Shown: positions 26,270 to 42,910, numbered from the stretch's first letter. The stretch is 64,000 nucleotides of DNA from Acidobacteriaceae bacterium (GCA_965277125.1 CBDIBU010000004.1:87940-151939), one strand, 5' to 3'. Notes: a model not told the origin generated them from the letters alone. Program-made: numbers and translations.

Positions 26270-27331
26270 ATGATTCTTGCAGGTGATATCGGCGGCACCA
26301 AGGTCCATCTGGCCCTCTACTCCTTCGACGACGGCAAGCTGCGCATCCTGCGCGAGCAGAAATATCCCGCCAACGAATACCTCTCCCTCGAGGCCGTCGT
26401 CCAGGACTTTCTCTCGACCGAGCCCGAGCGCCGCCAGGAGATTGCCGCCGCCTGCTTCGGCTGTCCCGGCCCCGTCCGCGCCGGCCGCCTCAAGCTCACC
26501 AATCTCCCCTGGATCCTCGACGTCCACGACCTCTCCACCCGCCTCGACATCGAGCACATCTTCCTCATCAACGATCTCGAGGCCAACGGCTACGGCATCC
26601 CCGAGCTCCGCGCCGAATCCATCTTCACCCTCCATGCCGCTGACACCGCCGCGGTCGGCCATCGCGGTCTCGTCTCCGCCGGCACCGGCCTCGGCGAGGC
26701 CCTGCTCATCTGGGACGGCAAGCAGCAGCACGTGCCCATCCCCTCCGAGGGCGGCCACTGCGACTTCGCCCCGCGCACCGATCGCGAGATCGATCTGCTC
26801 CAATTCCTCCGCCGCACCCTCAAGGGCCGCGTCAGCTACGAGCGCGTCGTCTCCGGCCTCGGCTTGCGCAACATCTACAGCTTTCTTCGCGACGAGGTCC
26901 GCCTGGAAGAGCCCGCGTGGCTCCGCGACCGCCTCGCCGCCGAAGACCCGAACGCCGTCATCGGGGAGTGCGCCGAGGACGGCTCCTCCGAGCTCTGCCA
27001 TGAGACCATGCACATCTTCTCCTCCGCCTATGGCGCGGAGGCAGGCAACGTCGCCCTCAAGGTCCTGGCCAGCGGCGGCATGTACATCGGCGGCGGCATC
27101 GCCCCGAAGATCCTCAAGATCATGCAGAGCGGCCCCTTCATGGAGGCCTTCGTCGACAAGGGCCGCCTCCAGCCACTCCTCGAAGCTATCCCCGTCCGCA
27201 TCATCCTCAATGACAACTGTGCCCTGCTCGGCGCAGCCGCCTTCGCCGAAGCTCGCGCGTCCGAGGTCTCCGGCCGCTCCGAACGCGCCGCCTCCATCGC
27301 TCACACCAGCCCGCCGTCCTCGCCCGCCTAA
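26270..27331 (+). CDS. glk: glucokinase
   Basis: MILAGDIGGTKVHLAL (ATP-binding), EGGHCDFAP and GGMYIGGGIAPK, typical of Glk-type glucokinases. Confidence 0.9.
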   Translation: MILAGDIGGTKVHLALYSFDDGKLRILREQKYPANEYLSLEAVVQDFLSTEPERRQEIAAACFGCPGPVRAGRLKLTNLPWILDVHDLSTRLDIEHIFLINDLEANGYGIPELRAESIFTLHAADTAAVGHRGLVSAGTGLGEALLIWDGKQQHVPIPSEGGHCDFAPRTDREIDLLQFLRRTLKGRVSYERVVSGLGLRNIYSFLRDEVRLEEPAWLRDRLAAEDPNAVIGECAEDGSSELCHETMHIFSSAYGAEAGNVALKVLASGGMYIGGGIAPKILKIMQSGPFMEAFVDKGRLQPLLEAIPVRIILNDNCALLGAAAFAEARASEVSGRSERAASIAHTSPPSSPA

Positions 27332-27393
27332 CCTATCCTGAACCTACCCGATCAGCGTCACCTCCTGACAAAAAGCGTTAGCCGCCACGCCGC

Positions 27394-27448
27394 AATCCGG
27401 ATTTCCAATCCGGTTTCCGTTGACAGCCAACCGGCGACCACTTACCTT
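27394..27448 (+). promoter_or_regulatory. tandem AATCCGG(A)TTTCC direct repeat abutting a TTGACA-17-TACCTT promoter-like element
   Basis: Repeats at 27394..27406 and 27407..27418; TTGACA 27420..27425; TACCTT 27443..27448; GAGGA 27456..27460; ATG at 27465. Confidence 0.3.
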
Positions 27449-27464
27449 CCATCCTGAGGACATA

Positions 27465-27629
27465 ATGAATAAGCTCCGTCTTGCCCTGCTTGCCTTCGGT
27501 CTGTTGTGCGTCGTAACACCCCGTTCTTACGCGACCGGTGGCTGCCTCAACTCTCCCGAAAACCCCACCGCCGTTCTTGCCGTCATCGGCTCCGCGGGCG
27601 CCGTCTTCTTCTCGCGTCGACGCAAGTAG
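27465..27629 (+). CDS. small PExPT/PEP-CTERM-like sorting-signal protein (putative exosortase substrate)
   Basis: MNKLRLALLAFGLLCVVTPRSYA (signal peptide) + TGGCLNS + PENPT + AVLAVIGSAGAVFF (TM) + SRRRK. This matches the tripartite PEP-CTERM architecture, and the gene sits directly upstream of an exosortase gene. Confidence 0.7.
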   Translation: MNKLRLALLAFGLLCVVTPRSYATGGCLNSPENPTAVLAVIGSAGAVFFSRRRK

Positions 27630-27806
27630 CCCATCTCCTGCCTTGCCCCGAACGCGCGGGAAAACGATCGACCGCGCCGCGGAAGCTTCGTTCCCCACCC
27701 TGCAGCAACCGGGGTGATCTTCCTTTCTTCCTTCCACTAACACACCGCTCGCCCGCCCATCGTATGTAACCGCCCAAGATGGAGACGATGTAGCCGCCAA
27801 GAGCAC

Positions 27807-29483
27807 ATGGCCACCACCGAAGCGACCCTCCTCGACGCTCCCCCGGCCTCCCGGCTCCGCTACCCCCTCGGCGTCCCGCTCCCCATCCTCGCCGCCGTCG
27901 TCCTCACCCTCGCCGGCATCAGCAGCATCTGGCCCACCGCCCTCGTCCTCTACACCATGTGGATCGATGACCCGCTGAAGTCGATCGGCATGCTTGTGCC
28001 CGTCGCCAGCCTTGCCCTCATCCTGCGTGTCTGGCGCTCGCTCCGGTGGGAGATGCGTGGCTCCTGGTGGGGCCTCGCTCTTCTGCTCGCCACCGCCGCC
28101 GCCGTCCGCTTCCGCGAGCAGTCCGTCCTTGTCCTCATCCTTTCCCCACGCTGGTCCATCTACTTCCCTCCGCACTCGCTCGTCGCCCTCGCCTACGCCA
28201 CCGGCTGCGTCCTGCTCTTCGGCGGCCTGCAGCTTCTGCGCGCTGCCCGCTTCCCCGTCCTGCTCACCCTGCTCGTCAACCCCGTCCCCCACGTCTTCAA
28301 CGTCTTCGTCGACCTTCCGCTCCAGCGCGTCTCCGCCCACGTCGCTCGCGCCTTCGCCCACGCGCTCCACCAGAAGCTCACCCCCGACCAGATGCGGCTC
28401 ATGTTCACGCCCGACTTCGGCATGTTCATCGCCCCCGGCTGCAACGGCATCCGCGGCGCCGTCACCATGGGCATGATCGCCCTCGTCGTCGGCTATCTCT
28501 ATCGCTTCCGCCTGCGCGACCACGCCCTCTTCGTCGTCGCCGCCGTCCTTCTCGGCTACATCTTCAACTTCGTCCGCCTCTGCACCCTTGTCCTCTTCTA
28601 CATCCTGGCCCTCAAGATCCCGTGGCTTCAAGACCGTGCCGAGATGGGCGACTACCTCATCGGCGCCGCCCTCTTTCTCGTCGCCGTCGGCCTGCTCTTC
28701 TCCGTCATCCGCCACCTGCAGCGTGCCGAGGCCGCACCCGCACCCCGGCTCGTCGCCCCGGCACAGCACACCACCCGCGGCAGCCTTTTCGGCACCCCCG
28801 CCCACCTCGCCGCCATGCTGGTCTTCAGCCTGTTCGCCGGCGTTCACTGCGCGCACGCCTATTCCCGCGCCCAAGCCATCGCCGGCGCTAACCTAGTCTC
28901 GTCACACAGCTTCCCCCCCGCCGTCGGCGGCTACCACCTCGACCGCACCTGGGCCGAGGGCATGACCGGCGGTCCCATCCTCTTCGACTGGGCCGCCTAC
29001 GCCCCGCCCCCCAGCCCAGTCGGCGCCAGCCCCTCCCTCACCGACTCGCCGCCCCTCCCCGTCGCGATCGGCCTCTCCCCCACGCTCGGCTCCCACGACT
29101 CCTCCATCTGCCACTCCGCCCGCGGCGAGGACCCCGTCTGGCACGGCCAGCTCGAGATCCCCACCGCCGCCGGCCCACAAACCTTCAGCAGCTCCTTCTT
29201 CAACGACGGCGCCCTTCAGTACCTCGAGCTCAGCACCGTCTGCACCGCCCTCGGCTGCGCCGAATACACCACCGGCGACAACCACCTCGGCCTCATCTAC
29301 ACCCGCCCCGCCCCTGCCGAGGCCCTTGCTCCCGAGGCCCACCGCCCCATCCCCGTCCTCCTACGCATCGAAACCTCCGACACAGCCATGCCCGCCGACC
29401 TCGCCCGCGCCGAGCTCACCGCCGCCGCCCGCCAGTTTCTCGCGGGTGCCGACCTCCTCGCCATCATCCGCCCCACCCGCTAG
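27807..29483 (+). CDS. exosortase-family protein fused to a C-terminal periplasmic (EpsI-like position) domain
   Basis: Polytopic N-terminal ~310 aa with the Cys motif IAPGCNGIRGAV (Cys212, codon 28440..28442) and the Asn/Arg motif YIFNFVRLCTL. An extra TM follows (LAAMLVFSLFAGV), then a ~200-aa soluble domain with four Cys. Confidence 0.8.
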   Translation: MATTEATLLDAPPASRLRYPLGVPLPILAAVVLTLAGISSIWPTALVLYTMWIDDPLKSIGMLVPVASLALILRVWRSLRWEMRGSWWGLALLLATAAAVRFREQSVLVLILSPRWSIYFPPHSLVALAYATGCVLLFGGLQLLRAARFPVLLTLLVNPVPHVFNVFVDLPLQRVSAHVARAFAHALHQKLTPDQMRLMFTPDFGMFIAPGCNGIRGAVTMGMIALVVGYLYRFRLRDHALFVVAAVLLGYIFNFVRLCTLVLFYILALKIPWLQDRAEMGDYLIGAALFLVAVGLLFSVIRHLQRAEAAPAPRLVAPAQHTTRGSLFGTPAHLAAMLVFSLFAGVHCAHAYSRAQAIAGANLVSSHSFPPAVGGYHLDRTWAEGMTGGPILFDWAAYAPPPSPVGASPSLTDSPPLPVAIGLSPTLGSHDSSICHSARGEDPVWHGQLEIPTAAGPQTFSSSFFNDGALQYLELSTVCTALGCAEYTTGDNHLGLIYTRPAPAEALAPEAHRPIPVLLRIETSDTAMPADLARAELTAAARQFLAGADLLAIIRPTR

Positions 29484-29488
29484 ACAGC

Positions 29489-30565
29489 CTAATGCAGCAC
29501 TGTGGCGAGCGAAGTCGTGGCGCCGCGAGACGCAACCGCATAGTGGTCTGCGGCCGGCGGCGCATAGCGCCGATAGACGCTGATATGGAAGCATGATTGC
29601 TTGAACTCTTCTTCCACATCGACTTTGCCGCTCTGGATCAGCAACAGCAGGTAGCCGCGCATCCATGCGATCTCCGCGACGGACATGCCTCGCTTGGCGA
29701 GATCGACCGCCTGCCCGGTCAGGTGCGGCGAGGCTGTATCCCCGTCCGCGGGAGCGGCGTTGCCGTTGCGATGCATGAGCTGTTGCTGAAACTCCACGGT
29801 GCGCACGGCGGAGTTCACCTGCAGCGGCGTGTGGAAGCGCTGGAAGTGATCGCGCGCAAGATCATGGAGGAAGAGCGCGGTCCACGGCCGGACGAAGCGC
29901 CGGTTGGTCGGCAGTCGGTCGTCAACCACCAGCGCTGCGTTCACCGGAACGGCGGTCAACATGCCGCGCTCGCGCAGGGCGTCCAGGTCGGCGTCATTCT
30001 GCACTCGGCCAAGCCCGTCCTGGTCGGCCATCTCGTTCTGGTGCAAGAGAATATCGTGCGATCCGACGAGCGCCGCGGGGACCAGCAGGCGACCGCGAGG
30101 ATCGTACAGCTTGGGCAAGGCAAGCGGCTGGGTGGCGGCTTCGGCGACGTCCGGCAGCTGCGGCCGATTGGCCGTGGGGCGGATCAGGTTGACCACGGCG
30201 GTCTGGGCACCCGGATCCGAGGCGGGGCGCGCGGACGTCCCTTTTTCCGCTGCTCTAAATCTATTTGGCTGAGGGATTTGACGACCGTGCGGGGCAACGG
30301 CGTGGCGCGAAGCAACGGCCTGGCGTGAGGAGCGACCGGGCAGCGCGCGGGCGGTGACCGACCAACGGCCGCTGCGCTTAGCCACGGCATGAAGGCGGGG
30401 GCGTCGACGAGCGGCGTGAGCTGCCGGTCGACGAGGGGTCACGCGCGGTTCGGGACGGCGCGCAAGCTCCCTGTAATGAGTGGGGTGAGAGGCAAAGGAA
30501 GGCGCACCGAAGAGCAGCGCAAGCAGCGCGGAACAGACAGCAGCGGCAAAGGCCGAAGGTCGCAT
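29489..30565 (-). CDS. secreted peptidase M15-like (VanY/LD-carboxypeptidase fold) protein
   Basis: Signal peptide MRPSAFAAAVCSALLALLFGAPSFA, a low-complexity Arg/Pro/Ala region, then SPHLTGQAVDL (SxHxxGxAxD zinc motif) and a C-terminal ...CFHISV His. Confidence 0.7.
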   Translation of the reverse strand: MRPSAFAAAVCSALLALLFGAPSFASHPTHYRELARRPEPRVTPRRPAAHAARRRPRLHAVAKRSGRWSVTARALPGRSSRQAVASRHAVAPHGRQIPQPNRFRAAEKGTSARPASDPGAQTAVVNLIRPTANRPQLPDVAEAATQPLALPKLYDPRGRLLVPAALVGSHDILLHQNEMADQDGLGRVQNDADLDALRERGMLTAVPVNAALVVDDRLPTNRRFVRPWTALFLHDLARDHFQRFHTPLQVNSAVRTVEFQQQLMHRNGNAAPADGDTASPHLTGQAVDLAKRGMSVAEIAWMRGYLLLLIQSGKVDVEEEFKQSCFHISVYRRYAPPAADHYAVASRGATTSLATVLH

Positions 30566-30703
30566 GGATTGTGGCGGCGGTCGCGGGGATCCGTCCAGAG
30601 CACCGTAAGACTATCTCGCATATTGAGTTACTGGGAGTAGCGAGCTGGGTTCGAAAGGGCCGAAGGTATACTGAGCGCTTGGAACGGTAGATCGGGAGCG
30701 TTC

Positions 30704-31117
30704 ATGCGGGGCGTTGCAGCGAGTTTTGGTATTGGCGCTATATTATTGATATCAAGCAGTTTGCACTCGGTGCGGGCGAGTGAGGACGCGGGGAAGCCGG
30801 AGTTCTACACGGCGAAGGTCGCGCCAATTCTTCAAAAGAACTGCTACAGCTGTCACGGCAGCATGAACCATCGTGGCGGCTTTGATATGGCGACCCGCGA
30901 GGGAATGCTGAAAGGCGGCCACCATGGGTCGGCGCTGGTTCCGGGTGATCCAGCTAACTCTATGCTGGTCAAGCTGATGCGACATGAGGGACCGGCTGAT
31001 GACCCGATGAACATGCCGCCCGCGCCCAGGCCCAAAGTGTCGGATGCGGAGATCGCGACGGTGGAGCAGTGGGTGAAGGCGGGCGCGGTGATGCCGCCGC
31101 ACGTGCCCAAACCGTAG
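30704..31117 (+). CDS. c-type cytochrome domain protein (planctomycete-type PSCyt1-like)
   Basis: Signal-like N-terminus, haem motif NCYSCHG, and LKGGHHGSALVPGDPANSMLVKLM typical of the Planctomycete cytochrome C domain. Confidence 0.75.
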   Translation: MRGVAASFGIGAILLISSSLHSVRASEDAGKPEFYTAKVAPILQKNCYSCHGSMNHRGGFDMATREGMLKGGHHGSALVPGDPANSMLVKLMRHEGPADDPMNMPPAPRPKVSDAEIATVEQWVKAGAVMPPHVPKP

Positions 31118-31554
31118 GTCGAAACTCTGTCAAAAACGATGGGCAGGAGGTGGCTTTTGGAGGGCAGAACGGCATCATGAATCGCTTTCTGCAGGCGAAT
31201 GCGCATGGCTCTCGACGACGTGCTCCTTAAAGGGATGGGGAGGGCGTAGGCGGCCGTTCGGTCACGGACCGAGCCCCCGGGAGGCTGACCTGCTCTCGCG
31301 TGTGACCCCGAGGTTTGTCGGGGAACGTCAAAAGCACTGCGCGTGCAGGGAAGGTGAGTGTCTCGAGCTTAGGCTGGAGGATGTAGACCACTCCGGTACG
31401 CTTCACGCGCACGAAGAGGCATCCTGAGGAACAACGATTGATGGACGTGTGGATCGGCAGACGGCGGGTTGGGCTGGGGCGCGTGGCGGAGATGGGTCTT
31501 TTCTGGGGAGCGGTGTGCTCGGCGGCGCAAGCGGCAGAGCCAATCTAGGCACCG

Positions 31555-32643
31555 ATGACGGCGGAGCACTGGCGTCTGGCCGGACCGGACCGGGCGGAGC
31601 CGAAGGCGGATGCGGTGTTCATGACCAGGGAGGGCTTTCCGCAGGGAGCGTTGATCCTCAAGGCCGGCGGTGTCGCGCTCGATGGTCTGAACTTCCGCAA
31701 CGGGACGATCGAGTTCGATGTTAAGCCGATCGGGGAGGACATGCCCGGAATACGTTTTCGGCAGCGCGGCGCACCGGGGGTGCAGGATGCGGAGGAGTTC
31801 TACGTAAGGAACTTTTCGGAATGCCGGGCGTCGGATGACTGTGTGCAGTATGCGCCGGTGATTCACGGCTTCATGCTGTGGAATGTGTATCCGCAGTTTC
31901 AGTCACAGGCGTTTGTGGTGGAGGGATGGAACCACGTGCGGTTGGTGATCTCGGGGCGGCGGATGAAGGTGTACGTGAATCGCTTTCCGGGACCGGTGTT
32001 GACAGTGGGCAACCTGGAGAGCGAGTCGGCTGAAGGCGAGATCCAGCTAGAGGGGCCGGCGGTGTTCGCCAACGTGGTGATTACGCCAGACGCGGTGGAC
32101 GGGCTGCCCGAGCAGCCGCTGCCTGACCCGACGGCGGGGGACCACGGCATTATTCGTCGGTGGCAGCTGGGGCCATTGGAGCCGCTGCGCTTCGGCAAGA
32201 CACCTAGCTACGAAGCGATGCCGACCGATCCGCAGCTATGGAAGAGCATGGCGACCGAGAGGCTCGGTCTGTTGAACCTGAATCGGCAGTACCGGGCGGC
32301 GGACGTGCCGCCGGCGCTTGGCTGGCTGCGGTACACGGTCGAGAGTGACCGGGAGCAGCGGAAGCGGGTCTCCATGGGATGGATTGGGCAGGTGTGGATC
32401 TTTGAGAACGGACGGCTGATCACGGAAGGCAAGAACTTCTATGACCCGGAGCGCGAGCGGCGAGCGCCGGATGGGCGGCTGGCAATGGAGAACGGATCCT
32501 TCGATGTTCCGTTGCGCAAAGGACGAAATGAGATTGCGATTGCGCTGTATGGCTCCCCGCACGACGATGCACGGAACCGAACACCGTACGGATGGGGGCT
32601 GATGATGCGGTTTGCGGACCCTGAGGGGCTGCGGCTGCCGTAA
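31555..32643 (+). CDS. hypothetical beta-sandwich protein (DUF1080/3-keto-disaccharide-hydrolase-like N-terminal half); its signal peptide is cut off by an in-frame TAG
   Basis: 362-aa ORF. In the same frame, 31441..31545 encodes MDVWIGRRRVGLGRVAEMGLFWGAVCSAAQAAEPI followed by TAG at 31546..31548. The family call is weak and made by eye only. Confidence 0.6.
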   Translation: MTAEHWRLAGPDRAEPKADAVFMTREGFPQGALILKAGGVALDGLNFRNGTIEFDVKPIGEDMPGIRFRQRGAPGVQDAEEFYVRNFSECRASDDCVQYAPVIHGFMLWNVYPQFQSQAFVVEGWNHVRLVISGRRMKVYVNRFPGPVLTVGNLESESAEGEIQLEGPAVFANVVITPDAVDGLPEQPLPDPTAGDHGIIRRWQLGPLEPLRFGKTPSYEAMPTDPQLWKSMATERLGLLNLNRQYRAADVPPALGWLRYTVESDREQRKRVSMGWIGQVWIFENGRLITEGKNFYDPERERRAPDGRLAMENGSFDVPLRKGRNEIAIALYGSPHDDARNRTPYGWGLMMRFADPEGLRLP

Positions 32644-32931
32644 GGGACAGATGCGGGAACAGGGTCGTGTCGGCGCCTTGAGCGGGATCGCAGCGTGAGC
32701 GAGGTGAAGATTGCTCCGCGGCGAACGCACGATTAGGTCGTGCGTTCTTCGGTCGAGGTGACAGCGCGTCGTGCGTGGGGAGAGCGGGACCAGACAGGGC
32801 TGGGGCAGATGAGCGTGGAAGCGTACCTCACGGTCGCAGCCGTATCGTGCTCAACTTGGGATAGTGCCCAAAGTCTTGCGGAGTCTCCGCAAGCATGGGC
32901 GAGCGGAGACGCGGGGCGAGGCGAGCGGAGA

Positions 32932-35856
<2,925 letters not shown>

Positions 35857-35901
35857 CTATACTCGAAAGGTTGTCCAAATCGCAGGAAAGGAAGGCTCCA
35901 G

Positions 35902-36099
35902 ATGCCAAAGTTGAAGACCCACTCGGGCGCGGCGAAGCGCTTCCACAAGACCGGCACCGGCAAGTTCAAGCGCGGCCAGTCGAAGATGCGCCATATTCTG
36001 ACCTCGAAGATGCAGAAGACCAAGCGCAAGCTGCGCGAGGGGGTTCTGGTTTCGGTGGCGGATTCGCCCAAGGTTGCCCGCATGTTGCCGTACGCCTGA
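35902..36099 (+). CDS. rpmI: 50S ribosomal protein L35 (bL35)
   Basis: [36 protein letters not shown], the canonical L35 sequence. It forms the 3' end of the spurious 33334..36099 ORF. Confidence 0.95.
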
Positions 36100-36273
36100 T
36101 CGGCGACGGCTGTTGCATCGGCTCGAGCCGCGCGACGGGATGATCTCCGGGACCGTGCGATGGGCACAAGCCCCTGGACCGGATGTCGGGTCCACTGAGA
36201 GCCGAGCTGTACCGCGAGCGAAGAGGTCACCCTGCCTCCAGCCGCGAAACGATGTATTCAAAGGAGATCGACC

Positions 36274-36657
36274 ATGCCCCGCGTGAAACGGAGTACCAAG
36301 CGCAGCGACCGCCGCAAGAAGATTCTGAAGCGGGCGAGCGGCTATTTTCTTACCAAGTCCAAGCTGTACCAGGCGGCGCAGGAGGCGGTCGAGCGCTCGC
36401 TGATGTTTGCCTACACCGGCCGCAAGCAGAAGAAGCGGCAGTTTCGCTCGCTGTGGATTGTGCGTATCGGGGCGGCGGCGAAGCTGAACGGCATGAGCTA
36501 TTCGACGTTTATCGCCGGGCTGAAAGCGGCGGGCAACGGGCTTGATCGCAAGATCCTGGCGGACATCGCGGTGAATGATGCGGCGGGGTTTGCGGCGTTG
36601 GCGGAGCAGGCCAAGGCGGCGCATGCAGCGAAGCAGAACGTGAGCCAGGCGGCTTAG
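36274..36657 (+). CDS. rplT: 50S ribosomal protein L20 (bL20)
   Basis: [25 protein letters not shown]...[21 protein letters not shown], the canonical L20 sequence. Confidence 0.95.
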
Positions 36658-37694
36658 GGTTCTCTCTGTGCGGCTGCGGTCTCGGGCATGGGCTCGGGGA
36701 TGTGCTCGGTGACGCCACTCTTCCATCCGCGGTAGGCGGCATCGAGCAGGCGCATGTTGGTGACGCCATCTGCGGCCGTGGCCTGGAAGGGGGCGACGCC
36801 GCGCACGGCCTGGGCGAAGCTGTCGAGCATGGCGGCGAAGCTGCCGGCGTTGTCGATCTCAGTGTGCTCTTCGAGCTTGCCGCCGCGACGAAGTTCAAGG
36901 GTCACGGGCTGGTCGACGGTGAGGGCGTTTTCGCAGAGCAGGACGCCCTCGCTGCCGACGACCTCGACCTGCGAGCGATAGGCGGCGAGCGCGGAGACTG
37001 TGACGCTGAGCAGGCAGCCGCCGGTCATCTCGCCTTGCAAGGAGGCGATGGCTTCGAGCCGGTCGTAGCTCGCGTCGCCGAGTGCCAGGGTCTGCAGGCT
37101 GACGATCTCGCGATCGAGCACAAAGCGCAGCGCATCCAGGCAGTGCACACCGACGTCGCCGATCGGGCCGCCGCAGGCGAGTGTGCCGTCGGCGATCCAG
37201 CGCCGCGGGCTGCGCGTGCCGTTGTAGCAGAACTGCGCGCGCGCGAGCTGCGGCGTGCCGATGCGACCGGCGGCGATGCCCTCGCGCAGGAGCACAAGCG
37301 CCCGGTTCCAGCGCATGTTCTGCGCCACGCCGAGCAGCACACCGGCGCGCTGGGCCGCGGTCTGCATGGCGAGCGCCTCCGCGGCGTTCATGGCCAGCGG
37401 CTTTTCGCAGAGAATGCTTTTGCCATGCGCGGCGCAGAGCAGAACATCTTCGTGGTGCAGCGCGTCGGGCGAGGTGATGAAGACGGCGTCGACCTCGGGC
37501 GAGCGGCACAGATCTTCGCGCGCGTGAAAGACGTGCGGGACGAAGAAGTCGGCGGCGTTTCGCGCGGCGGCGGCCGGATCGCGGCGCCACAGGCCGACGA
37601 GCTGGGCTTCGGTGGCGCGGGCGAACGCGGGCATCAGCCGCTTGATGGCGTGATTGCCGAAGCCGAGGATGGCGAAGCGGACGGGTGCGGGCAA
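36654..37694 (-). CDS. Gfo/Idh/MocA-family oxidoreductase
   Basis: [20 protein letters not shown] Rossmann N-terminus and ILCEKPLA motif. There is no ATG near the domain start; the TTG at 37694 lies 5 nt after GGAGG. The ORF is open up to 38036. Confidence 0.8.
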
Positions 37695-37752: not shown

Positions 37753-38853
37753 CTAGTGCGCGTCGTGCGTGAGCACTTCCTGGGCGAAGAAGTTCTCGAC
37801 CCGGGCCTGGTCCCGCAGGACCTGGAGGTAGGCGTTTTTGAGCAGCTGGGAGCGAGCCTCGCGGAGCTGCGAGCGGATGGCCTGCTGCACGCTGGGATCG
37901 TTGAGATCGCGTTGGCCGGCGGGCTCGCGGGCGACGAGCTTGTAGATGGCGTAGCCCATGGGCTTTTTGGTGCCGGCGTCGAGCAGCGGCAAGATATCGG
38001 TGATCTGGCCCGGCCGGAGTTTGGTGACGGCGGCATAGACGCTGGGGTCCGAGCGCATCTGCGACTCGGGAACGAAGCCCATGTCGCCGCCGCTGGACGC
38101 GGTCTCGGGCCGCTCGGAGAAGTTCATGGCGAGCGCGCCGAAGTCTTCGCCGGAGTCGAGCCGGTTTTTGATGGCCTGGATCTTCTTTTGCGCCTCGGCA
38201 TCGCTGGTAGCCTTGGAGCCCTGGAGGTTGCCGGGCTGGGCCGAGGGGACGTTGGTGACCTGAATCTGCTGCAGGCGGTACTGGGTCTCGATCAGGTTGA
38301 ACTCGGCCTTGTGCGAGTTGTAATAGCTCGCGATGTCGGCATCGGTGACGGTGATCTTGGAGTTGATTTCCTTGTTCAGGAGCTTGTCGATGGTGAGCGA
38401 GCGGCGGAGGTCGTGCTTGACGTCGTCCAGGGTGTGATTGCTGGCCTGGAGCCGCTGCTGGAACTGCTCCTCGGTGTAGGGCGCCTTCATCTCAGCGACC
38501 TTGGCGTCGACCTCCTCGTTGGTGGCGGTGAGGTTCATCTTGGCGGCGCGCTGCTGTACGATCTCCTCGTCGATGAGCTCGCGGAGGACGTTGAGGCGGA
38601 GCAGCTCGCCCTGGTCGAAGGAGGGCTGCTGGCCCTGGGTGTCGCCGAGCTGCGCCTGGTAGGCGCGATCGACCTCGGACTTCTGGATGGGGTGGCCGTT
38701 GACGGTGGCGACCACATCGGCCGAGTGGGCGCGGTGGCAGCCCGCAAGGGCGAACGGCAGCACAAGAATGGCGACCGCGCCAAGGAGCCCGCGACGGCAT
38801 CCGCGAGGGCGCCGGGGCGATCCGGCCGGCGACTTGGAGACGAGGTCGGGCAT
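37753..38853 (-). CDS. SurA-like periplasmic chaperone / parvulin-type peptidyl-prolyl isomerase (lipoprotein signal)
   Basis: Lipobox-like FALAGC, a SurA_N-like segment (ATVNGHPIQKSEVD...) and a parvulin motif region (SSGGDMGFV). Confidence 0.8.
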   Translation of the reverse strand: MPDLVSKSPAGSPRRPRGCRRGLLGAVAILVLPFALAGCHRAHSADVVATVNGHPIQKSEVDRAYQAQLGDTQGQQPSFDQGELLRLNVLRELIDEEIVQQRAAKMNLTATNEEVDAKVAEMKAPYTEEQFQQRLQASNHTLDDVKHDLRRSLTIDKLLNKEINSKITVTDADIASYYNSHKAEFNLIETQYRLQQIQVTNVPSAQPGNLQGSKATSDAEAQKKIQAIKNRLDSGEDFGALAMNFSERPETASSGGDMGFVPESQMRSDPSVYAAVTKLRPGQITDILPLLDAGTKKPMGYAIYKLVAREPAGQRDLNDPSVQQAIRSQLREARSQLLKNAYLQVLRDQARVENFFAQEVLTHDAH

Positions 38854-38856
38854 CGG

Positions 38857-39867
38857 CTAGCTGGCCGGCTTCGCGGCGGCGGAGGGGGCTTGGTTGGCAG
38901 CCGACGGGGCGGCGGCGGAGGGTGTGGGCGCGGACGGCGGCGTGCGACCCTGTGCCACCAGCGCGCCGTCGATCATGCGGAAGAGGGCCTCATTGGGGTA
39001 GGCGCCCTCGAACTTCTCGCCGTTGATGAAGAGGACGGGCGTGGAGCCGAGGCCGAGCGCGTCGCCCTCCTTGACTGAGGCTTCGACGGTGCGCGGGTCC
39101 TGATTGTCGATGCAGGCGCTCAACTTTGCTGCGTCCACGTGCTGCTGCGCGCCCTCGTCACGGGTGAGCGTGTCCAGGGTGTGGTTGGCGACCGCGAGGC
39201 TCTTGTCCGGTCCGCCGAGCTCGGCGGCGTGGGCATGGATGTGATCGACCAGGCTCCAGTAGCCGGCGGGGCTTTGCGCGGCGAGGCAGTTGACGTCGAT
39301 GGCGGCGCGCATGGCCCAGGGGTGGTTGGGCAGTGGATAGTCCTTGTAGACGAAGTGGACGTTGTTGCCATAGCGCTCAAGCAGCGCGGGAAAGATCTGC
39401 GCGTGGAGCTTGGCGCAGAACGGGCATTCGAGATCGTCGAAGCCGACGATGGTAACGGGCGCGGTGGTGGGACCGCCGCGACTCGGCCGGTCGGCGTCCG
39501 AGATCGCCTGCCTGGGGTCCTGGCTGAGGTCGTAGCGGCTGAACTGCGCGAGCGTCTTGCCGTCGGTGGAGACGAGGAAGTTGACCGGCTTGCTGGGCGT
39601 GCCGTCGGGGTTGGTGAAGAGCACGGCGAGCTGATCGAAGCCGGGGACCTCACTGGGGGTGAGCGAGCCCATGGTGACGGAGAAGTCGGGTGGCACATTG
39701 CCGCGGGTGCGAATCAGAACCTCAATGCGGCGGGCGAGCTCGGGCGAGAGCCGGGCGCCGGTCGAGGCGGGGACTGCCTGGCCGTGGCAACCGAGGGGGC
39801 TCAGCAGAAGCGCGGCGAGCAGGATTGGGAGGCGGCGAGACACGATCGGCACTGCTCTGATTATCAC
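38857..39867 (-). CDS. DsbA-family thiol:disulfide oxidoreductase
   Basis: Thioredoxin-fold active site DDLECPFCAKLH. Signal/lipobox-like N-terminus (LLLSPLGC). GTG start. Confidence 0.8.
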   Translation of the reverse strand: MIIRAVPIVSRRLPILLAALLLSPLGCHGQAVPASTGARLSPELARRIEVLIRTRGNVPPDFSVTMGSLTPSEVPGFDQLAVLFTNPDGTPSKPVNFLVSTDGKTLAQFSRYDLSQDPRQAISDADRPSRGGPTTAPVTIVGFDDLECPFCAKLHAQIFPALLERYGNNVHFVYKDYPLPNHPWAMRAAIDVNCLAAQSPAGYWSLVDHIHAHAAELGGPDKSLAVANHTLDTLTRDEGAQQHVDAAKLSACIDNQDPRTVEASVKEGDALGLGSTPVLFINGEKFEGAYPNEALFRMIDGALVAQGRTPPSAPTPSAAAPSAANQAPSAAAKPAS

Positions 39868-39980
39868 ATGCAGGCTCGCGGCGCGTGTATCCCTACAGGC
39901 CCGTCGCGTATCCCCTGCAGGCTCGCGGCGCGTGTATCCGACGCTCGCCGTGCGGCGCGGGATGGCCGTCCGGCAGGAGG

Positions 39981-42626
39981 CTAGAAGAGGCGCTCGGCGC
40001 GGCGCAGATTGCCGGCCGTGCCGATGTTGGCGAGGGTGAAGTTGAAGCGGTAGGCGTTCTCATTGCGGACGCTGCCGAGCTCGTACTTCCGGTACTCGAT
40101 GGCCAGGCCGCAGCAGTTCCAGTTATAGGAGGTCTGGACGGCGGCGTACTGGATCTGGGTGAGATCGAGGTCGAGGCCGGCGTTGGCGGCGACGCTGAGG
40201 CCGCCTTTGGTCGGGCTGCCGTAGCCGGCGAGCAGGCGCATCTGGTTGAAGTCCGAGGTGAGCGAGTTGACTCCCTCGACGTAGGAGCGACCGGGCGCAT
40301 TAAGGCGAGCGTAGCTGAGACCGGCGAAGGTGACGCCGCGGTGCACGTCGACGAAGACATTGTTGGCGGTGAACTTCTTGGCGCCGGTGTCGAGGTCGAA
40401 GTCCCACTCGAAGTCGACGAACTGCGAGGAGCGGATCTGCAGGCGCGAGATCAGGGGCGAGATGTTGCGGGGTTCGGTGAGGAAGGCGACGCCCGAGAAG
40501 TCGAGGGTGGAGGTGAGAATGTTGCGCCGGCCGGCGATGACGGCGCCGCCGAAGGTGGGGTTGAAGAAGCTCTTCTGGGCGAGCGTCCAGGTGACCCACT
40601 CGCGCGTGGTGCAGCGGGCGCCGATGACGGGAACGGCGATGCCGGGCAGCGCGTGGCCGCTGCCGAGGGCGGTGGGGACGGGGTCGCCGGAGCCGTTCGG
40701 CGCGGAGGCGTCGTCCAGCAGACCGCTGCCGCTCGCGTCCGTTGCGCCGGAGGCGTCCATCGAGGCGCCGCAGCTTTGATCGCGTGAGGCAGAGCGCACG
40801 AACACACGCTGGGTGACGCCGTATTCCAGCTCGTCGGTGTTGCTGACCACGTCGCGGTCGTCGAAGCGGAGGATGTTCTGGAAGTTGTGCACGCCGGTGA
40901 CGTAGCGATAGGTGAGGAAGGGCTCGACGGTGTGTTTGACCGGACCGTGGGCGAGGCGTTCGAGCAGCGGCGAATCAAAGACGCGCTCGACCACGGGGGC
41001 GCGCAGTTCGACCACGGCTTCGAGATTGGAGCGGCTGATGCTGCTGCGCTGTTCGATGGTCGGCGGCGGCCCGACAGGGGGCGTGATGGGAGGCGATCCC
41101 GGCAGCAGGTCGGGGTTGCGACTGCGGCTGTAGAAGGTCTCCCGCAGGCCGAGGGACGGGCGCAGGCGCCAGCCGTCGGCGGAGAGGCCGTAGGCGAGGG
41201 TGGGATGGAGGTCGAGCCGCTCGGTGACGCCGCCGGTGGCGAAGTTGGGCTGCACCCGCTTGAGGCCCGCGCCCTGGCTGTCGAAGTTCCAGCTGAGGCC
41301 GCGGACGCCGAAGGTGCGATCGGTGGAGCTGAACTCGAGCGAGGGCACATGGAAGATGCGGATCTCCTGCCCGGGGATGGCGGCCGCGGTGTCGGTCGCG
41401 GGGACGGGGACGCGCTTCAGGCCCTGGTAGCGATCGGACTCGAGGGAGGCGGTGTAGCCGTTGTGCGTGGTGATGCCGTAGGCCTCGGAGAGGATGTCGG
41501 TCGAGACCGCCTGGTTGAAGTTTTCGGTGAAGGCTTCGCGGTAGACATAGGAGCTGAGGTACTCGATGTCGGCGACGAAACGGGTCGCGGGGGAGAGATC
41601 GCGGCGGGCGGAGAAGACGAGGTCTTCCCCGCCCTGGTTGGTATAGGTTCCACCGGCGGGGGTGTAGCCGCGATCGAAGAGCTGGCTGTAGTGCGCTTGA
41701 AGGAAGTTGTCGCCCAGGCCGCGATTGCGCACGGTGAACTGATCGAGCCAGCCGCGCATGGAGAAGAACTCGGCGCCAAGCGTGATGTCGGTCGAGCGGC
41801 CGAGGGGGAGGTAGATCTGCTCGCCGAGCACGGTGCCCTTGGTCGAGGACTGGCCGATGACGGGGATAAGGAGGCCGCCCTGGCGACCCTCGGTCGCGAC
41901 CGGCTGGGTGACGTAGGGAAGGTAGAGCAGGGGCAGGTTGAGCAGATGGAAGACGGTGTTGCGCGCGCGCACCTTGTTGTCGTCCAGGCTGAAGAGGCCG
42001 CCGGAGAGCAGCCAGTCCGGGTGCGGCAGACGGCAGGAGGTGACGGTGCCGTCAAAGATGTCGTAGCTCTGGGGCCCTGTCTTGCGGACCTCGCGGCCAG
42101 TGAAGAGGAAGGGGTTGCCGTTGGCATAAACGAGCCGTTTGCCGACGGGCTTGAGGCCGACCGACCCGGTGACGTCGAAGAACTCGCCGACCTGGGTTTG
42201 GAGGTTGAGAGAGCCGCGACTGGCGTGGATCTCTTCGGCGTTGTTGCCGCCGCTGAGGTGGAGATGGCCGGTTGCGGTGAGCACGTGCGAGTCGGTGTCG
42301 TACTCGATGTGGTCGGCTTCTACCGTGCGGTCGGTGTAGTGGACGACGACGTCGCCATCGAGCACGTAGTGGTGGCCGGTCTTGGTCTGGGTGTCGCTGG
42401 TGATCGAGATGGGGGTGGTGTCCGTGGGGTCGGGGACGAGGTGGGCGAGCGGAAGGCCGGGGGCGGCGGGCAGGTTCGGGGGCGGCGTGGTGGGTTGTCC
42501 GCCTGGAGCAAGGGGTGCCTTCGTGGTCAACGTCTGGGCCACGGACGAGGGCGTGGAAAGGCCGAGGAGCATGGTAGATATCAGGAGGGCCAGGGCGCCG
42601 CGAGCGCTGAGGCCGACAAGGCGCAC
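39981..42626 (-). CDS. lptD: LPS-assembly protein LptD
   Basis: OstA-like N-terminal domain (HYVLDGDVVVHYTDRTVEADHIEYD...) followed by a ~700-aa beta-barrel region ending ...RRAERLF. The GTG at 42626 gives signal peptide (M)RLVGLSARGALALLISTMLLGLSTPSSVAQ; the ORF is open to 42758. Confidence 0.85.
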   Translation of the reverse strand: MRLVGLSARGALALLISTMLLGLSTPSSVAQTLTTKAPLAPGGQPTTPPPNLPAAPGLPLAHLVPDPTDTTPISITSDTQTKTGHHYVLDGDVVVHYTDRTVEADHIEYDTDSHVLTATGHLHLSGGNNAEEIHASRGSLNLQTQVGEFFDVTGSVGLKPVGKRLVYANGNPFLFTGREVRKTGPQSYDIFDGTVTSCRLPHPDWLLSGGLFSLDDNKVRARNTVFHLLNLPLLYLPYVTQPVATEGRQGGLLIPVIGQSSTKGTVLGEQIYLPLGRSTDITLGAEFFSMRGWLDQFTVRNRGLGDNFLQAHYSQLFDRGYTPAGGTYTNQGGEDLVFSARRDLSPATRFVADIEYLSSYVYREAFTENFNQAVSTDILSEAYGITTHNGYTASLESDRYQGLKRVPVPATDTAAAIPGQEIRIFHVPSLEFSSTDRTFGVRGLSWNFDSQGAGLKRVQPNFATGGVTERLDLHPTLAYGLSADGWRLRPSLGLRETFYSRSRNPDLLPGSPPITPPVGPPPTIEQRSSISRSNLEAVVELRAPVVERVFDSPLLERLAHGPVKHTVEPFLTYRYVTGVHNFQNILRFDDRDVVSNTDELEYGVTQRVFVRSASRDQSCGASMDASGATDASGSGLLDDASAPNGSGDPVPTALGSGHALPGIAVPVIGARCTTREWVTWTLAQKSFFNPTFGGAVIAGRRNILTSTLDFSGVAFLTEPRNISPLISRLQIRSSQFVDFEWDFDLDTGAKKFTANNVFVDVHRGVTFAGLSYARLNAPGRSYVEGVNSLTSDFNQMRLLAGYGSPTKGGLSVAANAGLDLDLTQIQYAAVQTSYNWNCCGLAIEYRKYELGSVRNENAYRFNFTLANIGTAGNLRRAERLF

Positions 42627-42910
42627 GAGGCCGACGGGGCATCGAGGGGTTTGAGCGATCGGCCGGCAGCGATCGTTTTCGCGGCCGGGGTCAGGTTCAG
42701 AGTCAGGATCCGCTGCTCCGAGCTTCGCCGCAATGCTGCTTTGGTTGGATGCCACCACGGTTCAAGGGTAGACGAAGCCGCTTGAGACGAGGTTGCGGAG
42801 GCGGGTTCCGGCGGCGAGCGACGGTTGGGACAGGACAGGACGGCTGCAACGGACGGGTTGCAAGAGACAGGGTTTTGAGAGACCGGTTTGAAGAGGCGAA
42901 CGGATTGAGC

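Follow-up and report, generated by a model that had tools for sequence, protein, structure and literature searches.

Exosortase J and an adjacent 54-residue PExPT-CTERM protein in Acidobacteriaceae: a candidate enzyme and minimal substrate pair

What does an exosortase make when the protein encoded beside it appears to be little more than a signal peptide joined to a sorting signal? This question is raised by two plus-strand genes in a stretch of 64,000 nucleotides (nt) from an Acidobacteriaceae bacterium (GCA_965277125.1, CBDIBU010000004.1:87940-151939), referred to here as the window and numbered from its first letter. The first is a mini open reading frame (mini-ORF, 27465-27629; 54 aa plus stop) with the translation MNKLRLALLAFGLLCVVTPRSYATGGCLNSPENPTAVLAVIGSAGAVFFSRRRK, and the second is xrtJ (27807-29483), which encodes the 558-aa exosortase J (XrtJ). 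An initial annotation, made from the DNA by itself, had placed both genes at these positions on the same strand, with 177 nt between the mini-ORF stop and the xrtJ ATG at 27807, and this placement is confirmed. In our reading, the pair probably encodes a dedicated exosortase and a minimal substrate that belongs to it, with transcription from a conserved promoter upstream of the mini-ORF.

Family identity and conserved linkage

The larger protein matches the exosortase J model TIGR04199 at 624.7 bits (cutoff 200, E 1.5e-187), with residues 32-556 aligned to profile positions 3-521/522. Its sole Pfam match is PF09721 (119.8 bits, residues 35-302), which covers the core only, and the exosortase/archaeosortase signature TIGR04178 scores 43.5 bits against a cutoff of 23 over residues 207-305. 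Models for other exosortase subfamilies fall far under their own cutoffs, among them XrtA (TIGR03109; 46.3 against 208) and XrtW (49.9 against 425). Thus the exosortase call that had first been made from motifs holds. The initial annotation had also named a catalogued NCBIfam pairing of a PExPT-CTERM protein with XrtT; such a pair is indeed catalogued but under another letter, since the family is XrtJ and XrtT (NF033770) is absent from the 18 NCBIfam families that match the protein at E<=10.

The 54-aa protein matches TIGR04200 (model name targ_of_XrtJ, 'PExPT-CTERM protein') at 59.1 bits (cutoff 40, E 2.7e-16), in agreement with its description as a dedicated PEP-CTERM-like partner. Its tail stays under the canonical PEP-CTERM thresholds of TIGR02595/PF07589 (13.6 against 16 in NCBIfam, 14.6 against 20.7 in Pfam); judged by these scores, it has a PEP-CTERM-related layout, yet it is not a canonical PEP-CTERM signal. 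Relatives of the mini-protein bear the Pfam family PF27850 (Targ_of_XrtJ), and homologues of the pair are named 'exosortase J' (NCBI, JGI), 'PExPT-CTERM protein' and 'XrtJ-associated TM-motif-TM protein' (JGI) in public annotations. Both window proteins, the mini-protein with its exact sequence, are already called as proteins in NCBI/ENA, and each of the two families has more than 1000 members in public data. By profile match the pair is a member of the curated XrtJ/PExPT-CTERM families, from which no difference was seen, and it is not novel: NCBIfam and Pfam contain curated entries for both families, and public annotations name them. A literature search on XrtJ, PExPT-CTERM and exosortases in Acidobacteria/Granulicella returned nothing relevant on the function of the pair, in line with the earlier remark that no function has been demonstrated for exosortases of this kind.

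Linkage was assessed in 80 related loci from species-representative genomes (43-66% identity) together with the window, giving 81 loci that are nearly all from Acidobacteriaceae, including Granulicella, Edaphobacter, Tunturiibacter and many metagenome-assembled genomes. Two orthogroups can be told apart among these loci, type A, which includes the window, and type B, both described below. With a hidden Markov model (HMM) built from the mini-ORFs, a mini-ORF was found just upstream of xrtJ and on the same strand in 69 of the 81 loci, ~20-300 nt ahead of the enzyme gene and with a median gap of ~65 nt (67 loci). The mini-ORF therefore does co-occur with this exosortase clade. Of the one-enzyme/one-substrate pair that had been proposed, the adjacency stands; a strict one-to-one relationship in cis does not, as 12 of the 81 loci have no mini-ORF and orphan mini-ORFs exist.

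The mini-ORF has promoter elements of its own. A terminator-like hairpin after glk, detected by consensus scan at 27397-27413 on the plus strand (CCGGATTTCCAATCCGG then TTTCC), divides the glucokinase gene from the mini-ORF transcription unit. It is followed, on the same strand, by a -35 box (TTGACA, 27420-27425), of which TTGAC is invariant in an alignment of six divergent type-A loci, and 17 nt further on by a -10 box (TACCTT, 27443-27448), the commonest -10 variant (17 of 41). In type-A loci the arrangement TTGACN-17/18 nt-TANNNT, ending 15-20 nt ahead of the ATG, precedes 41 of 67 mini-ORFs compared with 0.5% of random 90-nt windows. A ribosome-binding site (GAGGA, 27456-27460) lies 4 nt ahead of the ATG on the plus strand, and GAGGA or GAGG is found in most type-A loci. 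The window also has a terminator-like site between the mini-ORF and xrtJ (27696-27716). A terminator or attenuator between the two genes was nevertheless rejected, as no hairpin consistently beats shuffled sequence across the 67 loci. An Rfam scan of window positions 27000-30000 gave zero matches at E<=1.

Conserved features of the peptide and the enzyme

Residues 1-23 of the mini-protein (27465-27533, plus strand) are predicted from sequence features to be a Sec signal peptide, with MNK, a hydrophobic core and P-R-S-Y-A, and signal peptidase I likely cuts after Ala23. Among 65 distinct relatives of 54-75 aa this N-terminal hydrophobic region is variable (entropy of 2-2.9 bits per column); counted from the Cys, 72% of them retain a Pro at -7 and 71% an Ala at -4, and the spacer between the hydrophobic region and G-C differs by 2-8 residues. 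The block that follows, G26-C27-L-N-S30-P31-E32-N33-P34-T35 (27540-27569, plus strand), is a putative recognition or cleavage motif with a Cys at fixed distance. Conservation within it is 100% for C, S, P, E, N, P and T and 98% for G, the consensus is G-C-x-x-S-P-E-N-P-T-x-x-L-A, and there are no indels from the Cys to the motif. The predicted C-terminal transmembrane (TM) helix and basic tail (27570-27626, plus strand) consist of AVLAVIGSAGAVFF (residues 36-49) and SRRRK (residues 50-54). This helix is rich in small residues, includes the invariant L38 and A39 and, at 0-1.9 bits, is far more conserved than the signal peptide. The tripartite layout of N-terminal hydrophobic stretch, Cys, P-E-x-P-T, TM helix and basic tail is common to all 65 relatives. 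All available synonymous codons are used at the invariant residues (each Pro, for example, is encoded by CCA, CCT, CCG and CCC) and therefore selection acts on the peptide, which at codon level demonstrates purifying selection on its motif. Clustered at 90%, the family numbers no fewer than 1031 members, of which the best 120 matches are 54-94 aa long. Mini-proteins are thus uniformly tiny, as expected from the earlier statement that there is almost no cargo.

On the enzyme side, AlphaFold2 (AF2) predicts a core of eight helices, then an Arg-rich linker, one further helix and an alpha/beta domain, at a mean predicted local distance difference test (pLDDT) of 76.8. The eight-TM exosortase core (27879-28730, plus strand; residues ~25-308), delimited by AF2, PF09721 and TIGR04178, has predicted helices at residues 25-54, 56-78, 87-105, 123-146, 159-186, 212-232, 236-270 and 278-308. 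The three motifs that had been picked out by eye are present, IAPGCNGIRG at residues 208-217, FNFVRL at 253-258 and EMGDYLIG at 279-286. Cys212 (codon 28440-28442, plus strand), which from its conservation within APGCNGIRG is the presumed catalytic nucleophile, is shared by all 51 XrtJ sequences and all 14 diverse exosortases aligned, and 80 of 81 loci scanned have it. Arg257 (codon 28575-28577, plus strand) belongs to N254-F-V-R257, in which N254 and R257 are invariant in XrtJ and non-XrtJ exosortases. Residues invariant in the core of the 51 XrtJ sequences include C212, R216, N254, R257, C259, D282, Y283 and G286, and C212, G214, R216, N254, R257, D282 and G286 are invariant in all 14 aligned exosortases, which comprise XrtJ and more distant members found by exhaustive search. 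With the N-terminus inside, three residues would lie near the periplasmic face: C212 where TM6 starts, R257 in the outer portion of TM7 and D282 where TM8 starts. In the archaeosortase ArtA, Cys173, Arg214 and Arg253 are required (PMC9263693).

EMGDYLIG had been suggested as the place of the third catalytic residue, usually His in exosortases. Asp282-Tyr283 (codons 28650-28655, plus strand; D-Y-x-I-G) lies where TM8 begins. In the alignment of the 14 exosortases, Tyr follows this Asp in XrtJ; at that column three non-XrtJ sequences have His (D-H-x-x-G) and four have other residues, a comparison for which four XrtA-like metagenomic sequences served as XrtA stand-ins. A tblastn of an XrtA-like protein against plasmids gave no match. 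D-Y is found in 78 of 80 loci and D-F in two. As aligned, Asp282 is a residue universally conserved among the exosortases sampled and Tyr283 fills the His column, so XrtJ retains the Asp and appears to lack the His. A sequence-profile search of the PDB gave no match at E<=1, and a Foldseek search with the full-length XrtJ model gave none below E 0.06.

The core is followed by an Arg-rich linker (residues 305-328) and a ninth TM helix (28791-28889, plus strand; residues 329-361; pLDDT up to 97 by AF2), which joins it to a C-terminal alpha/beta domain of predicted periplasmic location (28890-29480, plus strand; residues 362-558). This domain is part of the TIGR04199 profile; the C-terminal 203 residues by themselves score 177.9 bits over profile positions 338-521, and an AF2 model of residues 325-558 (TM9 and the domain) has a mean pLDDT of 84.5. 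An alignment reveals the motif H430-D-S-S-I-C435-H-S-A-R-G-E-D-P-V-W445 (29094-29141, plus strand), recognisable in 75 of 80 loci. Invariant residues of the domain in the 51 XrtJ sequences are H430, D431, C435-H-S-A-R-G-E-D-P443, W445, C479 and C484. Cys348, 435, 479 and 484 follow the core in the window protein. The domain had been described as having four Cys; three of these, C435, C479 and C484, are conserved, whereas Cys348, which belongs to the extra TM helix, is not.

The same description compared the domain with EpsI. XrtD, XrtW and EpsH-EpsI fusions do share the architecture of XrtJ, a core, an extra TM helix and a periplasmic domain, and the XrtW and XrtD profiles resemble XrtJ through TM9, to residue ~377, but the globular domain matches no EpsI, XrtD or XrtW model. 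Neither EpsI nor any other Pfam or NCBIfam model matches the domain, or its stand-alone homologue described next, at E<=10, so the EpsI-type label is dropped except as an analogy of architecture. The EpsI motif H-x-P-x-x-C may resemble the H-D-x-x-x-C of XrtJ. Against the PDB, Foldseek finds weak PsbP/DcrB/SciW-like sandwiches for the domain model (best E 0.018, TM-score ~0.3-0.44), and a search for homologues of the domain by itself returned six XrtJ fragments and, at the sensitivity of that search, none outside the family. In one divergent locus (L081:1457-3320) XrtJ is split into a 317-aa core, which passes the XrtJ cutoff, and a separate 230-aa protein, encoded 15 nt later, that aligns to profile positions 335-519 and still has both the H-x-x-x-x-C and the C-x-x-x-x-C motif. 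There the mini-ORF has S-P-E-D-P-T and lies 9 nt upstream of the core, and a thioredoxin gene follows on the opposite strand. Given this split system, the C-terminal domain is a separable module, as EpsI is for EpsH, by analogy of architecture and not by demonstrated homology. An apparent split in another locus (L082), where the second ORF is 46% identical to the C-terminal domain of the window protein, was not used as evidence because it looks like a frameshifted full-length gene. Several further XrtJ-like proteins of ~300 aa exist (P0164, P0177).

Genomic setting of the two locus types

Type-A loci have the order zwf-pgl-glk-(M1 peptidase)-mini-ORF-xrtJ, usually then a lipoprotein with immunoglobulin (Ig)-like and NHL repeats. 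Type-B loci have the order frr-mini-ORF-xrtJ-bamA, with divergent frr (minus strand) on one side and co-directional bamA directly downstream of xrtJ in 17 of 20. These 20 type-B loci (among L056-L079; also, for example, L060:1063-6078 and L086:3501-7195) all have a mini-ORF, a variant that contains …SPENPTLVLAGLAGG…, and seven of the eight genomes with two copies hold one of each type. Neither type was found within an exopolysaccharide locus or beside a regulator in the loci examined.

The lipoprotein (lipobox L-A-G-C-G) directly follows type-A xrtJ in L022:7230-10118 and ~43 other loci. It has Ig-like (HYDIN/DUF1573) and NHL-repeat domains, and its extreme C-terminus is strikingly conserved (TLTEFVGLAxPVKTPLxGPxxxP). 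No homologue of it was found in the 64-kb window, where the large downstream ORF is gyrB. Downstream of xrtJ the window instead has a DUF5715 gene (29489-30565, minus strand), a small PSCyt1 cytochrome c gene (30704-31117) and then gyrB. Nine type-B loci have a DUF5715 homologue ~3 kb upstream of xrtJ, and several type-B loci also have a cytochrome c homologue upstream of it, a neighbourhood that could be weak synteny or a weak functional link. Window positions 29484-36900 are rearranged relative to the closest relative, L001 (7573-11446), in which gyrB (window 32932-35697, minus strand) lies on the xrtJ strand and near xrtJ. An outer-membrane biogenesis cluster is found ~8-13 kb downstream on the minus strand (37753-42758), comprising genes for a SurA-like protein (37753-38853), a thioredoxin-like protein (38857-39867) and LptD (39981-42758). 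Long antisense ORFs, such as a 498-aa ORF opposite xrtJ (window 27378-28874, minus strand), were rejected as genes; they are shadow ORFs of GC-rich DNA, and they cluster across loci because they mirror xrtJ.

Two observations concern mini-ORFs in unusual positions. Two tandem mini-ORFs, both with the full motif, precede one xrtJ in L034:5521-5945. An orphan Targ_of_XrtJ gene (P0290, 61 aa, full motif; L083-L085:3501-3686), flanked by a PolX/PHP gene on one side and an Rrf2 regulator on the other, was found on five contigs; no exosortase gene lies within 3.5 kb of it.

Proposed processing and competing explanations

XrtJ can be compared with several better described systems. Like XrtA (EpsH), which acts on PEP-CTERM proteins, it has an eight-TM core with the Cys, the Arg of C-x-G-x-R, the Arg of N-x-x-R and the Asp, and a tripartite target of motif, TM helix and basic tail is common to both. 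However, XrtA serves many cargo proteins and belongs to exopolysaccharide loci, whereas XrtJ has one adjacent mini-target and housekeeping neighbours; XrtJ also has the extra TM helix and the 200-aa domain, and Tyr where three other aligned exosortases have His. ArtA, the PGF-CTERM enzyme, shares the superfamily signature TIGR04178 with XrtJ, and its Cys and Arg are essential (PMC9263693), but it handles large S-layer and other glycoproteins in a reaction coupled to lipid attachment, while the 'cargo' of XrtJ is ~ten residues. Sorting systems in which neighbouring genes encode an enzyme and its one dedicated target form a recognised class (Haft 2023 preprint, 10.1101/2023.06.07.544157). One of them, MrtJ/JDVT-CTERM, resembles XrtJ in having a single adjacent co-oriented target, whose signature motif contains or is close to an invariant Cys (10.1101/2023.06.07.544157), although MrtJ is a CAAX/Rce1-like protease unrelated to exosortases and JDVT targets are of ordinary size.

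By analogy with the superfamily, from which we infer every processing step, the 54-aa precursor would be exported via Sec and cut by signal peptidase I after Ala23, leaving a 31-residue peptide, TGGCLNSPENPT-AVLAVIGSAGAVFF-SRRRK, anchored in the inner membrane in an N-out/C-in orientation. The active site of XrtJ, near the periplasmic ends of TM6-TM8, would recognise the SPENPT block and the adjoining L-A-containing helix and cleave in or beside the motif through a thioacyl intermediate on Cys212. A Cys-containing N-terminal peptide of ~9-12 residues would then be handed to water or to an envelope acceptor. The periplasmic domain, with its HDxxxCHSARGEDPxW motif and CxxxxC pair, might handle the peptide or the acceptor, maybe via the Cys of the peptide. 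The product thus seems to be a tiny peptide, free or conjugated, and not a sorted protein.

Several points weigh against a dedicated enzyme with its own minimal substrate. Twelve of the 81 XrtJ loci have no adjacent mini-ORF, one of which is short of the upstream sequence needed to judge, and no substitute small tripartite ORF was found in these loci. The XrtJ genes of the loci without a mini-ORF are full length with intact catalytic motifs, and thus the enzyme is not obligatorily tied to a partner in cis. In four of the 12, the same genome has a second XrtJ copy with a mini-ORF; in L030, L045, L049 and L053 a type-A xrtJ with intact motifs directly follows glk, its mini-ORF lost or never present, and the type-B copy has one. 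Taken together with the orphan mini-ORF, these loci imply that enzyme and peptide can be unlinked, and the enzyme may act in trans. For no XrtJ system did the literature search find a report of cleavage, a product or a phenotype. The signal-peptide call is a prediction from sequence features, and the older name 'XrtJ-associated TM-motif-TM protein' reflects an earlier interpretation by curators, in which the N-terminal stretch is a membrane helix and not a cleaved signal peptide. A Cys/Arg/His triad has been proposed for the superfamily (10.1101/2023.06.07.544157), and its canonical His appears to be absent from XrtJ, with Tyr283 in that column of the alignment. Finally, the absence of other PEP-CTERM-like tails speaks for a dedicated pair, but it holds for the 64-kb window and 1.06 Mb flanking XrtJ genes, the extent of the survey for PEP-CTERM-type proteins.

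The older name raises the question of whether the mini-protein is cleaved at all. It could instead be an uncleaved TM-motif-TM hairpin bound to XrtJ as a subunit, pseudo-substrate or regulator, with the real clients elsewhere in the genome. Besides the JGI family name, the 12 intact XrtJ loci without an adjacent mini-ORF would fit a hairpin, as would the conserved small-residue packing positions of the C-terminal helix (L-A, G-S-A-G). However, the N-terminal region evolves as a generic signal peptide does, with high entropy and only the Pro at -7 and the Ala at -4 kept, and the spacer ahead of G-C varies by 2-8 residues. The invariant block is placed exactly as the cleavage motif of exosortase-type signals, and the 1.06 Mb of flanking sequence holds no other client candidates. 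We therefore regard an uncleaved hairpin as unlikely.

If cleavage does occur, the fate of the peptide could resemble that of AgrD in the AgrB/AgrD system, the Cys thiol or the N-terminal amine of the peptide attacking the thioacyl to give a cyclic thiolactone or lactam that serves as a signal or envelope factor. The functional analogy is a polytopic membrane Cys protease encoded beside a tiny precursor with a Cys at fixed position, here under a strong-looking promoter. The distance from Cys to motif is strictly fixed (C-x-x-S-P-E-N-P-T in the 65 sequences) while the N-terminal part varies in length, and a separate peptide variant goes with each of the two paralogous XrtJ types. Nevertheless, analogy is the only basis for this proposal. 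There is no sequence relationship to AgrB (Pfam gives PF09721 only), the context is Gram-negative, and no two-component sensor is adjacent, nor is there a conserved sensor kinase or regulator nearby, the neighbours being housekeeping genes (zwf-pgl-glk, or frr and bamA). Unlike the Agr specificity groups, the peptide core is near-constant between species. Such cyclisation by the AgrB/AgrD route seems improbable to us.

The same Cys invites comparison with a lipobox, in which case Lgt and LspA would lipidate Cys27 and remove the signal peptide, and XrtJ would trim the C-terminal anchor to leave a tiny lipopeptide. The Gly at -1 (98%) and the Cys (100%) are conserved, and type-B precursors read A-F-A-L-G-G-C, compatible with a relaxed lipobox. 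In type-A precursors (S-Y-A-T-G-G-C in the window), though, position -3 is Q or T and position -2 frequently D, N or E, and several of these precursors have 4-5 extra polar residues between the hydrophobic core and the Cys (HAQTPINGC, HADTDGAGGC, HAQEGVIDGC), whereas genuine lipoproteins of the same loci use the canonical L-A-G-C. We give lipidation very little weight. That the small ORF is a chance or unexpressed ORF, the exosortase serving ordinary PEP-CTERM cargo, can be dismissed despite the many long spurious ORFs of this GC-rich window and a cargo survey confined to the window and the XrtJ flanks, in view of the HMM E value of 2.7e-16 and >1000 homologues, the synonymous codon variation at invariant residues, the conserved promoter and ribosome-binding site, and a tail that stays under the canonical PEP-CTERM thresholds.

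Within the reading that we favour, a dedicated exosortase with its own minimal substrate, a further and rather doubtful proposal is that XrtJ is a peptide-maturation enzyme and not a protein sorter, one that converts the precursor into a discrete Cys-containing peptide of ~9-12 residues. The matured peptide could be cyclised via its Cys in the AgrB/AgrD manner, coupled by a disulfide to the periplasmic domain of the enzyme, or moved to a lipid or glycan. The fixed spacing between Cys and motif, the odd number of invariant periplasmic Cys and the housekeeping/bamA context leave room for unusual chemistry of this sort, such as ring closure through the Cys, a mixed disulfide or attachment to a molecule of the envelope. 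Maturation of a peptide would also fit the position of XrtJ beside bamA or central-metabolism genes and not in exopolysaccharide loci. If this proposal is true, the product would be a core envelope component or signal in Acidobacteriaceae.

To our knowledge, no bacterial exosortase has had its product, cleavage site or acceptor defined chemically. The XrtJ pair is close to the smallest such system imaginable, with a precursor of 54 residues and a mature part of about ten. It is thus attractive as a minimal model of exosortase chemistry, as the candidate catalytic residues are easily mutated and the promoter looks strong. Work on it would show whether this widespread Acidobacteriaceae pair makes a peptide signal or an envelope modifier.

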